Shown one piece after another: positions 6,132-9,592 of a stretch of DNA of 32,000 nucleotides (position 1 is its first letter; each line of letters begins with the position of its first letter). A model generated the notes under the pieces. It was not told where the DNA came from and did no database searches. It saw only the letters and a program-made list of their open reading frames with translations. Source of the stretch: an archaeon (GTDB lineage Archaea; Nanobdellota; Nanobdellia; Woesearchaeales; UBA9642); the NCBI GenBank assembly GCA_020057295.1, contig JAGVGF010000003.1:154236-186235 (forward strand), written 5' to 3'. The position numbers were made by a program, and so were the translations under genes.

Positions 6132-6147
6132 GAAACATTTATATATA
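6132..6147 (+). promoter_or_regulatory. BRE/TATA-like promoter (GAAACATTTATATATA) for the 6197-9592 operon
   Basis: Purine-rich BRE-like GAAACA is followed by TTTATATA, about 55 nt upstream of ATG 6197. The leader carries GGGGG at 6187-6191. Confidence 0.5.
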
Positions 6148-6196
6148 AGTTATACTTATTACTACTAAGTAGTAATTATTTGATTTGGGGGTATAC

Positions 6197-7327
6197 ATGA
6201 ATGATGTTTTAGAGAAGGAAAGAGTAATAGTTCAAGAAAAACCTTTTCAAAGAAATTGGACTCACGAATATTTAGATCAATTGCTAGATACATTACCACA
6301 AATTAATTCTCATAATCCATCTAATCCAGAATGGCGTGAAACACCATTAATAAAATTAGATCTTAACAATTACGGTTCTAAAAAGAGAAATGTAAGAGTT
6401 CTTGTAAAAAATGAGGCTGACAGAACAAGTAATCCTGAAGGTCTTCTAAAAAATAGAATGGCACACGAAGTTGAACCAGTATTTTATAGACATGTAGCAG
6501 AACATTTATGGAGACAAAAACTTAATGGACAGTTGCATTTAATTCCATTACCATTACAAACTATGTGCACAGCAGGAAATGCCGGAATGGTTCTAGCAAA
6601 AGCTGCAGAAAAATATGGTTTACCTCCTGTAAAATTATTACTTGACATTCACACTCCTTCAAACATTCTTGAAGCATTAAAAAAATCAAGGGCAGATATT
6701 TATCTTGCACCCTTAGATAGAAATGTTTTCACAGGAAAAGATGAACCTTACAGCCCATTACAACTAAGAATTTTAACGAACAATAATACGGGATTTGATA
6801 CGACTTCTTCACATTCACCGATTAATCCTTTCAAGGATTACTATGATTGGCATTGGCATGAAATATTTAATAAGCAACCATCAAGAGTTTATGGTCCATT
6901 CGGTACAGGAGATTGGTTCTCAAATGGAATAACATGGCAGAGAGAAACAGTCTATAATGGAGAAACACGTAAAGATCCAAGATTAACTGCAGATATTTCT
7001 AGAGTAACAGATATTAGTATACTTGCTGCAGAGCCTGAATTACAAACAAGTTTAGCAAGAAAACTTACAGGATTAAAACCTTTCTTATATTATACAGAGA
7101 ACGATATTACAGCTATGAAATTATCACGCTTCACAGGAAAAGATACAGGAGTTTACAAAATAAGTGAAGATTATTTGAAAGAAGGATTCAACATATTAAG
7201 TCATGTTGTAGAAACTTCATATGACGGATCTTCAGGAATGGCACTTTTAGTCAAAGATTTTGATGAAGGAAAATTAAAACCTGGAGAAACATATATTGCA
7301 GTAAATACTGGGAGGGGACTAGTATGA
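6197..7327 (+). CDS. PLP-dependent enzyme, fold type II (tryptophan synthase beta / threonine synthase / cysteine synthase superfamily); specific reaction unknown
   Basis: VKNEADRTSNPEGLLKNRMA aligns with the lKlE..nPtgSfKdRga PLP-lysine motif. CTAGNAGMVLAKAAEKYGLP aligns with sSGNhg.alA.aA...G. GPFGTGDWFSNGI resembles the Gly-rich phosphate loop. I moved the start from the track's TTG 6185 to ATG 6197, which lies 5 nt after GGGGG. Confidence 0.8.
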   Translation: MNDVLEKERVIVQEKPFQRNWTHEYLDQLLDTLPQINSHNPSNPEWRETPLIKLDLNNYGSKKRNVRVLVKNEADRTSNPEGLLKNRMAHEVEPVFYRHVAEHLWRQKLNGQLHLIPLPLQTMCTAGNAGMVLAKAAEKYGLPPVKLLLDIHTPSNILEALKKSRADIYLAPLDRNVFTGKDEPYSPLQLRILTNNNTGFDTTSSHSPINPFKDYYDWHWHEIFNKQPSRVYGPFGTGDWFSNGITWQRETVYNGETRKDPRLTADISRVTDISILAAEPELQTSLARKLTGLKPFLYYTENDITAMKLSRFTGKDTGVYKISEDYLKEGFNILSHVVETSYDGSSGMALLVKDFDEGKLKPGETYIAVNTGRGLV

Positions 7328-7473
7328 AATACAAAGTCTGCATCTCAGTGGATGAAGAAACGTTATTAAAAATCAGAGAACATATACGTAAAGGTAAATT
7401 CAGAAATAGATCTCACGCTTTCGAATACGCAATTTCTAAAGAATTCATAGCACAAGGTGATGCTCATGAGTAA
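7324..7473 (+). CDS. Ribbon-helix-helix (CopG/Arc/MetJ-like) DNA-binding protein, 49 aa
   Basis: Not in the ORF track because of its size. My translation is MKYKVCISVDEETLLKIREHIRKGKFRNRSHAFEYAISKEFIAQGDAHE. This gives a beta-strand (KVCISVDEE), helix A, and an RNRS turn leading into helix B. Its ATG overlaps the upstream TGA (ATGA at 7324-7327). Its stop overlaps the next gene's start by 8 nt. Confidence 0.7.
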   Translation: MKYKVCISVDEETLLKIREHIRKGKFRNRSHAFEYAISKEFIAQGDAHE

Positions 7474-9592
7474 ATCATTAAAAGTTTCACTACAAAAATT
7501 ACTTGGTAGTAGAGCACACTATTCTTATTTGAGCGATGTTGTATTTCCAGAATTAGAACAACTAGTGGCTGATAATATTATTGTTCCTCAAGAATTACGT
7601 AAAATAAGAGAGAACGTCGAATCTAAAGGTGTTGGTATATTAAATCCTGAAGTATCTTTTAGATCAGACATAACACGTAATACTTATGAGGCTGATGGTT
7701 GGATTGCTGAAACAGTTAATGAACTTGCTCCAGGAGTAAATGTTTCACACATTATTAAGAAATGTTCATCTAAAGAAGATTTCAAACGTAGTGTTAGAAC
7801 TTATAGATCACTCGAAAGTGCATTAAAAGATACTCCTTATCAAGGCAAAATTCCTAAACATTTTTACGCTATAAAATCAAAAAAAATTATTGACGCGCCT
7901 TTTGTAAAGGGAAAAATACTTTCAAGAGAATTAGATGAAAGTTCACAAGAAGACAAAGAAGCGTATCTAAAAGGATGTATTGCAGATTATATAGATTTTT
8001 ACAAATTTTTGAATCAACCTGAAGTTTCTCAGAAATTAGATTTAGGGCAATTATCAGATTTTAATGAATTTTTCTTCTTCAAGTATTCAAAGAGCGGACC
8101 ATTATTCCAATTATATCAGAGGGATATCGGTAATGATCTGAATACCGTTGGTAAGAAAGTTATTCAAGGAGACTTAGTTCCAACTAACGTTCTACACGGT
8201 GCAGAAAATGCATCTGATTTTTCATATGTAGATTGGGGTAATGCAGTAAACAATGGATTTTTAGAATTTGATATAGGATATTTATTAAAAAAATCTAAAG
8301 TAACTCCTGAAGTTGAAGAGAAATTAGCAAGATATGCTGCAGAATTAGCTTATGATACTTCTGAAGATAGAGAAAGATCATTTAAGATATATACAAAAAA
8401 TATGATTACACAAGAATTATTATCTGCTAGAAGATATGTTGATAGATCAAAATCTAAGGATATAATTGACTCGGATCAAAGAGTTTCTTTAGAGAATATG
8501 GCTTTAGTAAATTATAATCGTGCAGTTGCAAGAACAAGAACTGCTGTAAATCGTGGAATTGTTAGTCAAGAATTTTTGAATGCTTTAGTTGATCAACCTA
8601 TCGATGGATTAAAAGTTGTAGAAAATTATGATCACTTACTAAAAGATTGGGATCCAGATGGGTCTATGTCGCAAGACAATTTAGTTCCAAAAGATATTAC
8701 AAAAGCAGAACAATATGATCCAAAAAAGAATTTGAAAGCTATAAAGAAAAGCATATTCCGTGAAAGATCCCGTTCATTGACTTATTCAGCCTTGAAAATA
8801 TTTGCTGTAGTCAGCGCTCTAAGTATGGCTGGAGGAATAATCTATAATCAGAATAGGGAAACTGAAATGCTAAAGGAAGATGCTGAAAAGACAAGAATAA
8901 GTTATCTTCAAGATAACACCACAAATTTATACGAAAGTTTATTCAGACGTCAATTCGATCTGGTTTCGAGAAGATTTGCCGAGGGATACAAGCAACTTAG
9001 TTTTAGAGAGAACGACACGAGAATTGACAGTGTAGCAAAAAAATATCAACTTGATCCACAATTAATAAGGAATATAATGAAGGTCAATAGAGTATATGCT
9101 GGATACACTACTTTGGCTAGTGACCAAACCCTTGATGTTGAGGGAATCAGTGTTGCTGATTGTATATCTATGGCTGACTCAATTAATGAAACGAGACGTA
9201 TGAGTACGTTTTATTTGCGTGATAATGAGGTAGAATCACTTGATCCTGTCAAGAATCTTGAGGCCTGTGCGCAAAGATTAAGTAAATATTTTAAAGAAGA
9301 AAAAGAAAAAACACCTCTAGAATCTGTAGGTTCATATGAAATATATGTCACAGAGCTCAATAAGCGTGTCTTAACAAGATTTTTCTTTCCATTTACGGAG
9401 AAAAAAGAACTTAATGTTGGAGAAAAAAGTTATCACATGCCTTATGGAGATTTCAGCGAATTAGAAATGAAAGATATACGTGATAGGGTTGTTAGACAGT
9501 TAGTCTATAATGCGATGTATGGAATATCTCACGGCGCGGAGTTCGGGCATTTGTATAGTTCATCATTAAAAACCCCTCCGGATAATTTTTAA
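7466..9592 (+). CDS. Membrane protein with an N-terminal protein-kinase-like (APH/choline-kinase-type) domain, a single TM helix, and a C-terminal domain of about 240 aa of unknown function
   Basis: The catalytic-loop-like sequence VIQGDLVPTNVL corresponds to HGDxxxxN with Q in place of H. It is followed by SYVDWGNAVNNGFLEFDIGYLL, matching the APH-family iDW..a..G....D pattern. A hydrophobic helix ALKIFAVVSALSMAGGIIY lies at about residue 450. The likely start is ATG 7466 (MSKSLKV) rather than the track's GTG 7457. Confidence 0.8.
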   Translation: MSKSLKVSLQKLLGSRAHYSYLSDVVFPELEQLVADNIIVPQELRKIRENVESKGVGILNPEVSFRSDITRNTYEADGWIAETVNELAPGVNVSHIIKKCSSKEDFKRSVRTYRSLESALKDTPYQGKIPKHFYAIKSKKIIDAPFVKGKILSRELDESSQEDKEAYLKGCIADYIDFYKFLNQPEVSQKLDLGQLSDFNEFFFFKYSKSGPLFQLYQRDIGNDLNTVGKKVIQGDLVPTNVLHGAENASDFSYVDWGNAVNNGFLEFDIGYLLKKSKVTPEVEEKLARYAAELAYDTSEDRERSFKIYTKNMITQELLSARRYVDRSKSKDIIDSDQRVSLENMALVNYNRAVARTRTAVNRGIVSQEFLNALVDQPIDGLKVVENYDHLLKDWDPDGSMSQDNLVPKDITKAEQYDPKKNLKAIKKSIFRERSRSLTYSALKIFAVVSALSMAGGIIYNQNRETEMLKEDAEKTRISYLQDNTTNLYESLFRRQFDLVSRRFAEGYKQLSFRENDTRIDSVAKKYQLDPQLIRNIMKVNRVYAGYTTLASDQTLDVEGISVADCISMADSINETRRMSTFYLRDNEVESLDPVKNLEACAQRLSKYFKEEKEKTPLESVGSYEIYVTELNKRVLTRFFFPFTEKKELNVGEKSYHMPYGDFSELEMKDIRDRVVRQLVYNAMYGISHGAEFGHLYSSSLKTPPDNF

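Follow-up and report, generated by a model that had tools for sequence, protein, structure and literature searches.

In the PASTA kinases of Gram-positive bacteria (PknB, PrkC and StkP), an outer domain drawn from a cell-wall enzyme family binds peptidoglycan fragments non-catalytically and controls kinase activity or localisation (PMC3145798, PMC5786024). In the haloarchaeal CdrS-ftsZ2 arrangement, a small gene for a CopG-type ribbon-helix-helix (RHH) protein lies immediately upstream of a larger effector gene and is co-transcribed with it (PMC7439475). By analogy, these are the closest functional counterparts, the second for the small co-transcribed RHH gene, of a locus in a 32,000-nucleotide stretch of archaeal DNA, here called the window (Woesearchaeales lineage UBA9642; assembly GCA_020057295.1, contig JAGVGF010000003.1, positions 154,236 to 186,235 of the forward strand). 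At window positions 6132-9592, three consecutive genes encode an enzyme of the pyridoxal phosphate (PLP) fold-type II class, an RHH protein and a membrane-spanning kinase-like protein. By comparison of gene neighbourhoods, the conserved unit is the pair formed by the RHH regulator and the membrane kinase, a pair widespread in DPANN archaea. On balance we favour, by a modest degree of confidence, the reading of the locus as an autoregulated receptor-kinase cassette typical of Woesearchaeota and Pacearchaeota, in which an enzyme gene has been captured.

The window kinase resembles the PASTA kinases in architecture alone, with a cytoplasmic kinase domain at the N-terminus, one transmembrane (TM) helix and a C-terminal outer domain. 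Unlike them, the window kinase is APH/choline-kinase-like (the kinase is Hanks-type in two related proteins, P0077 and P0080), its outer module is related to SLT (lytic transglycosylase) domains, its gene is coupled to an RHH gene and it belongs to an archaeon without murein; PASTA repeats were matched neither in the window protein nor in 55 homologues. As in CdrS-ftsZ2, a small archaeal RHH gene directly precedes a larger partner, and orthologues of the RHH protein give weak matches to the NCBIfam CdrS model (E = 0.007). These scores fall far under the model's cut-off, which makes the relationship one of analogy and not of membership, and in place of FtsZ2 the downstream gene encodes a membrane kinase. 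In full-text searches of the literature, no account of a cassette joining RHH and kinase genes in DPANN archaea was found.

All three open reading frames (ORFs) are on the forward strand. ORF1, the PLP enzyme (376 amino acids), extends from the ATG at 6197 to the TGA at 7325-7327; ORF2, the RHH protein (49 amino acids), from the ATG at 7324 to the TAA at 7471-7473; and ORF3, the kinase (708 amino acids), from the ATG at 7466 to the TAA at 9590-9592. ORF1 and ORF2 share an ATGA (4-nt overlap, 7324-7327) and ORF2 and ORF3 overlap by 8 nt (7466-7473). An earlier note on this DNA, made from the letters alone, had reported three ORFs with these overlaps, and its coordinates proved exact on re-reading; its description of a single, translationally coupled operon is upheld in silico by the two overlapping junctions. 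From their conservation, all three are real genes, since ORF1 has 22 homologues with an invariant lysine, ORF2 is conserved at the protein level and ORF3 is related to 57 other cluster representatives. Shine-Dalgarno-like sequences precede each start on the same strand: GGGGG (6187-6191) before ORF1, GGGAGGGG (7310-7317), which falls within the 3' end of ORF1 and ends 6 nt before the RHH ATG at 7324, and GGTGAT (7456-7461) before ORF3. A BRE/TATA-like (B recognition element and TATA box) promoter element, CGAAACATTTATATATA, was read at 6131-6147 of the forward strand, with GAAACATTTATATATA within it at 6132-6147. It is the single promoter-like element that the earlier note had placed before the ORFs, and it is conserved in two related contigs, standing before the RHH gene in locus L003 and before the PLP gene in locus L097 (alignments A8 and A14). 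We infer that it is the promoter that drives the operon. A sequence similar to this element, GAAACATATATT, occurs inside the 3' end of the PLP gene (7286-7297), 27-38 nt before the RHH ATG, and may be an internal promoter for the RHH and kinase genes.

Against the Pfam family RHH_1 (PF01402), ORF2 scored 19.3 bits (gathering score 20.5) and its orthologue in L010 scored 22.6 bits. Aligned orthologues (A2, A6, A11) are 45-49 amino acids long and contain the RHH domain alone. The earlier remark that so small a gene would often be missed by annotators does not hold for the window, where the source record calls it and names it 'Arc/MetJ-type ribbon-helix-helix transcriptional regulator'; it does hold for L003, where the orthologue is uncalled. 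The 7324-7473 ORF is conserved as a protein in many genomes, settling a doubt raised in the same place: when one genome per species was scanned, 266 RHH relatives were obtained. The best 80 loci of this set, nearly all from Woesearchaeota, Pacearchaeota or Nanoarchaeia, were analysed and hold 90 RHH copies. A kinase gene follows directly in 39 of the 90 cases (34 Hanks-type, 5 APH-like), and in 38 of these 39 pairs the kinase start overlaps the RHH stop, 25 times by 4 nt. Among 77 proteins encoded downstream of RHH genes, Pfam identified Pkinase in 30 and APH in 5. The remaining RHH copies precede different genes, mostly for proteins of 170-350 amino acids, some of them in tandem arrays. In every locus examined that encodes an APH-like kinase with an SLT-like domain (L001/L002, L003, L010/L011, L012, L013, L014), a small ORF overlaps the kinase start, and in L001, L003, L010 and L012 it is an orthologue of the RHH gene. 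Many of the contigs with RHH and kinase genes (L017, L020, L027 and others) are titled 'uncultured Methanosarcinales archaeon' and are probably mislabelled DPANN bins.

A perfect palindrome, ATTACTACT-A-AGTAGTAAT (6158-6176, no strand), whose 9-nt arms are 100% complementary, stands downstream of the TATA box and upstream of the PLP start codon. Its core, TACTACTNAGTAGTA (TACTACT-N-AGTAGTA), is exact at 6160-6174; the window contains two matches to the core, where 0.17 would be expected. When up to 2 mismatches were allowed, 38 matches were found in 757 kb of related loci, where about 8 are expected by an estimate from base composition; 26 of the 38 sit 14-65 nt 5' of an RHH start codon. Such placement argues strongly, in silico, for autoregulation of the RHH family through the palindrome as its operator, and suggests that an RHH dimer binds there. 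The second copy in the window, AACTACTATGTAGTA (794-808), has 2 mismatches and lies about 230 nt before the gene for a 371-amino-acid protein (1026-2141) whose hydrophobic N-terminal stretch may serve as a signal sequence; this gene could be a further regulon member, or the match could be due to chance. In L068, L069 and L070 (about 1390-4360), two or three cassettes, each made of an RHH gene and a gene for a 220-310-amino-acid protein, follow one another; some of these proteins have hydrophobic segments, and the palindrome stands before the RHH gene of the first cassette.

A small RHH gene that overlaps a larger downstream gene behind a palindromic operator is also the classic layout of a type II toxin-antitoxin or defence-like pair, in which the kinase would be a toxin of HipA- or Doc-like logic. 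The RHH profile recovered the RHH antitoxins Rv0298 and ParD from the PDB, weakly (E about 0.05), and in some clades the small upstream gene is replaced by a non-homologous one, both of which would suit such a pair. Set against these points, the RHH protein, at 45-49 amino acids, has no C-terminal toxin-neutralising extension; its partner is a membrane protein of 700 amino acids, one domain of which is predicted to be outside the cell; and the locus is held in fixed synteny among housekeeping genes (eIF5A, an M50 protease, an ABC transporter) across divergent genomes. No match was returned by PADLOC, in agreement with the earlier view that the architecture is not that of a known toxin-antitoxin or defence system, and there is no island in the GC profile around the PLP gene; PHROGs yielded nothing useful. 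An explanation of this kind therefore seems very improbable.

ORF3 has no direct sequence match in Pfam, NCBIfam or the PDB, and Pfam Pkinase (PF00069) in particular does not match it. Its family was defined by an exhaustive search of 1.84 billion cluster representatives, from which 55 family members were aligned. Pfam APH (PF01636) matches 43 of the 55, with 48.3 bits in family member P0060 (gathering score 23.2), and the kinase-like TCAD9 family matches 31. Together with Foldseek matches and conserved residues, these define an APH/choline-kinase-like domain at amino acids 1-400 (7466-8665, forward strand). The AlphaFold2 (AF2) model of ORF3 (predicted local distance difference test, pLDDT, 88) retrieved PsiK, MTR kinase, LicA/choline kinases and APH(2'') from the PDB at 1e-6 to 1e-4, with target TM-scores of 0.45-0.62. 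The motifs IIKK (beta3 Lys, K98), QGDLVPTN (D236, codon 8171-8173, and N241) and VDW (D256) supply the catalytic residues, which are conserved in 47 of 49 (K98), 53 of 54 (D236), 51 of 54 (N241) and 55 of 55 (D256) members. By motif and model, then, the K/D/N/D set of the kinase domain is intact and the fold is APH/choline-kinase-like. With the described family (PF01636; MTR kinase, LicA, APH(2''), PsiK) the domain shares the fold, the HGDxxxxN catalytic loop and the metal-binding Asp of the IDW/F motif; it differs in belonging to a single-pass membrane protein, and in that Hanks-type kinases take the same syntenic position in other genomes. To our knowledge, no APH/choline-kinase member spans the membrane once and carries a sensor domain outside. 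One relative, P0028 (649 amino acids), retains the APH-like kinase domain; the TM helix and SLT-like domain are replaced in it by a cytoplasmic S-adenosylmethionine-dependent methyltransferase domain.

The single TM helix is a hydrophobic stretch, SALKIFAVVSALSMAGGIIY, at amino acids 441-460 (8786-8845, forward strand), through which a long helix runs in the AF2 model. Averaged over 51 homologues, the net charge is +4.9 on its N-terminal side and -1.3 on its C-terminal side, from which the positive-inside rule predicts an N-in/C-out orientation, with the kinase domain in the cytoplasm and the C-terminal domain outside. The outer part carries an SLT (lytic transglycosylase, GH23)-like domain (8978-9589, forward strand), recognised by profile matching. 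The C-terminal profile (A7) matched the MltC-type structure 9vi7 at 5.8e-5, a tape-measure SLT domain at 0.023 and E. coli MltC at 0.035; Pfam SLT (PF01464) matches 7 of the 55 family members, weakly. Two motifs line up with those of the enzymes, 'VAxKYGLDPxLL..' before the catalytic helix and 'DPxxNLxxGAxRL' with 'DPxxNIxxGxxYL'; a GLMQ-type motif was not found in the outer domain of the family. The family's 'vNr' aligns with 'I/T-E-S' of MltC and puts Asn541 (codon 9086-9088) at the position of the catalytic Glu. Across the family this position is N in 37 members, S in 3, Q in 2 and H in 2, and never E. We read the outer domain as a catalytically dead SLT domain, homologous to lytic transglycosylases; with the catalytic Glu replaced in all members, it is not to be classed as an active one. 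It thus shares sequence motifs with the family 1 enzymes (PF01464/GH23, MltC), and differs from them in the Asn or other residue found for Glu and in being fused behind a kinase and a TM helix. SLT-domain proteins described from the same archaeal lineages are very large (up to 3,000 amino acids) extracellular enzymes or adhesins for which an interaction with bacterial cell walls has been proposed (PMC8204110). The ORF3 family shares with them the lineages and an SLT-like domain predicted to lie outside the cell; unlike them, its members are about 700 amino acids long, kinase-linked and without the catalytic residue.

The same TM and SLT-like module was found in P0077 and P0080 behind a Hanks-type kinase (Pkinase, 92 and 72 bits), and both genes occupy the syntenic position of the window kinase, before a gene for an AbrB-type protein and an ABC transporter. 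Present on both kinase classes, the module acts like a sensor compatible with either of them. The earlier fold assignments (a fold-II PLP enzyme, an RHH protein, and an APH-like kinase with one TM helix and a domain of about 240 amino acids predicted outside) were correct. The two features that the note left unexplained, the outer domain and the embedded RHH protein, prove to be the core of the system.

The kinship of the outer domain with peptidoglycan-cleaving enzymes, and of the kinase fold with small-molecule kinases, could also be accommodated by sugar salvage. The APH family includes AmgK, an anomeric kinase for N-acetylmuramic acid and N-acetylglucosamine; by analogy, the SLT-like domain would dock on bacterial peptidoglycan, the APH-like domain would phosphorylate an imported amino sugar, and the RHH protein would be a plain operon repressor. 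With the catalytic Glu absent from every SLT-like member, the domain could not release sugars itself. Protein kinases of the Hanks type hold the same position with the same outer domain, and the operon contains neither a sugar transporter nor a downstream salvage enzyme. We therefore regard salvage as improbable.

The PLP gene is a later addition, to judge from the loci that lack it. It is absent upstream of the RHH and kinase genes in all 11 other distinct APH-like kinase loci (L001/L002, L003, L010/L011, L012, L013, L014, L021, L029, L050, L072 and L090). In L010 the order is M50 protease, L40e, eIF5A, HExxH protein, RHH, kinase, a convergent AbrB-type gene (~300 amino acids) and a Liv-type ABC transporter, which is the neighbourhood of the window apart from the PLP gene; by this comparison L010 shows the ancestral neighbourhood. 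The promoter and palindrome that stand before the PLP gene in the window are homologous to the region before the RHH gene in L003, and the divergent upstream genes are orthologous. In L097, which has the closest PLP homologue (66% identity), the same promoter is followed by the PLP gene, an unrelated 161-amino-acid gene, the orthologous RHH gene and the contig end. Since promoter, operator and divergent gene are shared between window and L097 on the one hand and L003 on the other, the alignments indicate an insertion of the PLP gene into the operon leader in the window/L097 lineage, downstream of the ancestral operator and ahead of the RHH gene.

PLP homologues recur in RHH-led operons in varying order. 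In L005, L102 and L098 the gene immediately follows an RHH gene, and in L004 it comes after an RHH gene and a 288-amino-acid gene; the order in L041 is PLP, RHH, Hanks kinase; and in L101 the PLP gene directly precedes a Hanks kinase (Pkinase, 107 bits) at an AbrB-type locus. The palindrome was also met without a nearby RHH gene: in L006 (4939-4953) and L007 (1885-1899), an operator-like copy, TACCACTAAATAGTA, lies 62 nt before the start of a PLP homologue, suggesting regulation in trans by an RHH family member. Identities among the PLP proteins of these loci are 37-50%, which makes the associations old or independent. Other PLP loci, including those of Patescibacteria, have no such neighbours. 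The recurrence in varying order marks the PLP gene as an accessory, and the best-supported description of the enzyme, judged from these neighbourhoods, is that of a recurrent RHH regulon member. The earlier note had asked whether the triad is found in any relative: the PLP gene does recur near RHH or kinase genes (L097, L041, L101, L098, L102, L005, L004), and what is conserved as a core is the RHH-kinase pair. The RHH genes in front of PLP homologues, together with L097, L041 and L101, speak against a PLP gene without any relation to the module. A match of 27 bits in L017 was discarded as a different fold-II enzyme, and the recurring 288-amino-acid and 161/162-amino-acid proteins beside PLP genes proved not to be homologous to one another.

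ORF1 itself matches Pfam PALP (PF00291) with 29.1 bits (E = 8e-7), below the gathering score of 35 bits. Only 22 homologues were found in a collection of 5.8 billion proteins, most of them with a precomputed PF00291 match, and they come from Nanoarchaeota and Nanoarchaeia (DPANN archaea) and a few Patescibacteria. Lys85 (codon 6449-6451), the Schiff-base lysine, lies within NPEGLLKNR and is invariant in the 22 homologues, whose motif is SNPxGxxK(D/N)R (consensus SNPTGTxKDR). Also invariant are G127, N128 and G236, and residues of the family's own (YDWH, TNN, KLT, KPF). The AF2 model (pLDDT 90.8) has the tryptophan-synthase-beta-like two-domain fold and, in Foldseek, is about equally like every fold-II family (ThrC, CysM, serine dehydratase and CBS at E 4.5e-13 to 1e-11, TM-score about 0.55-0.6), with threonine synthase nominally first. 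The family profile matched the ThrC structure 6cgq at 1.6e-10, and identity to solved ThrC structures is about 15%. The ThrC models (TIGR00260, PRK; NCBIfam) did not match the window protein at E<=1, and the best match among the 22 homologues (E = 1.5e-8) is well short of the equivalog threshold. The protein, which the earlier note allowed might prove an ordinary ThrC or CysK orthologue, instead matches no NCBIfam equivalog and belongs to a family of only 23 members. With ThrC and other fold-II enzymes it shares the fold, the Schiff-base Lys motif, the GN loop and the glycine-rich phosphate loop; it differs in the missing equivalog match, in its own invariant residues and in its restriction to DPANN archaea and a few Patescibacteria. 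From residues and model, ORF1 is probably an active fold-II enzyme of an orphan ThrC-like family.

The nearness of this family to threonine synthase, a phospho-ester enzyme, bears on a rival reading that builds on the pathway put forward in the earlier note. In it the kinase would phosphorylate a free hydroxy-amino acid (homoserine, serine or threonine), the ThrC-like enzyme would carry out a beta/gamma replacement or elimination on the resulting phospho-ester, and the RHH protein would regulate the pathway. The fold of ORF3 is a small-molecule kinase fold, the APH-like family includes alternative homoserine kinases, and PLP and kinase genes are adjacent in three divergent lineages (window/L097, L041 and L101). 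The kinases adjacent to the PLP gene in L041 and L101 are Hanks-type protein kinases, however, and not APH-type; the PLP gene is missing from the 11 other APH-like loci, most PLP homologues have no kinase nearby, and gene order varies among loci. Moreover, the kinase has the build of a receptor, anchored in the membrane and bearing a sensor-like domain outside; Hanks kinases with the same outer domain hold the same syntenic position; and no ThrB or ThrC equivalog model matches either protein. On this evidence the phosphorylate-then-replace scheme is weakened, and we consider a pathway of this kind quite improbable.

The receptor-kinase cassette that we favour would work as follows. By binding the palindrome, with which the predicted transcription start overlaps, an RHH dimer would repress its own operon. 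The inactive SLT-like domain would bind glycan strands without cutting them, bacterial peptidoglycan or a polymer of the host cell wall being the candidates. Ligand binding would activate the kinase, and cytoplasmic targets would be phosphorylated, with the co-translated RHH protein as the prime candidate. Contact with the cell wall of host or prey would thereby be coupled to transcription, and the ThrC-like enzyme would be a co-regulated accessory product. In its strictest form this would be an undescribed one-step signalling system, in which the receptor kinase senses a cell-wall glycan and phosphorylates the RHH protein, freeing the TACTACT-N-AGTAGTA operator, with the PLP gene in the regulon; taken whole, that stricter form is unlikely.

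Several observations weigh against the favoured reading. The window ORF3 itself matches neither Pfam APH nor Pfam SLT, its catalytic loop has QGD instead of the usual HGD (His to Gln), and the nearest relatives of its fold are small-molecule kinases (MTR kinase, choline kinase, APH) instead of protein kinases. No SLT structure appeared among the top 50 Foldseek matches (PDB, BFVD), lists that were filled by kinase matches, which accounts for the want of structural confirmation; the SLT call comes from sequence profiles, with a best E of 5.8e-5. In a divergent clade the small ORF before the kinase is not an RHH gene (L013 760-909, L014 3831-4004, L015 3807-4004). PLP genes stand beside kinases in three lineages (window/L097, L041, L101), and this recurrence could reflect a functional tie closer than that of a co-regulated passenger. 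As for the small ORFs of L013, L014 and L015, an AbrB/SpoVT-like identity, suggested by eye (..KHGxQAxIVVPK..), drew no significant support: hhalign gave a probability below 1% and nothing was matched in the PDB or NCBIfam; Pfam MazE matched L015 only (E = 0.14).

On the window's reverse strand, a gene for an AbrB/SpoVT-type protein of ~300 amino acids (9589-10512) converges on the kinase gene and overlaps it at its 3' end. The N-terminus of the protein is of the DNA-binding AbrB/SpoVT type, and the C-terminus is helical and weakly PhoU-like; Pfam MazE/AbrB was found in 6 of 6 orthologues. It is 80% identical in L010, versus 41% for the kinase, and a convergent AbrB-type gene follows the kinase in 19 of the 39 RHH-kinase loci. 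The divergent gene upstream of the operon (5365-6063, reverse strand) encodes a protein with a HELLH motif and a weak match to YgjP-like metallopeptidases, with 75% identity in L010 and 51% in L003. Beyond the AbrB-type gene, two adjacent genes for Liv-type periplasmic-binding-protein homologues (10665-11888 and 11935-13089) are followed by ABC transporter genes, in synteny with L001 and L016; the two proteins have near-identical N-terminal segments resembling a signal and lipobox (MNKTIIG.FSLF.V.LFIVGCTQTPTGPTGQV). In L016 (1966-5659), genes for a transglutaminase-like TPR protein and an OTCase/ATCase-like carbamoyltransferase lie between the RHH gene and a Hanks/SLT-like kinase gene, all junctions overlapping; from its gene order, this is another case of enzyme genes captured into a cassette.

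For DPANN archaea, mostly uncultivated episymbionts, the means of sensing a partner are largely obscure. A minimal RHH gene, its palindromic operator and a kinase of receptor type whose outer domain varies make up an easily recognised and widespread unit, which is a candidate for host or cell-wall sensing. An SLT-like domain without its catalytic Glu would parallel the PASTA and LysM receptor kinases in the use of a cell-wall-related module as a sensor. The predicted operator permits regulons to be predicted straight from metagenomes, and the orphan ThrC-like PLP family, confined to organisms with very small genomes, offers a defined target for enzymology. There is a lesson for annotation as well, in that seeming three-gene modules can come from the insertion of a gene into the leader of a conserved two-gene operon. 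If the one-step scheme were true, the cassette would be the DPANN counterpart of two-component systems, serving to sense the host.

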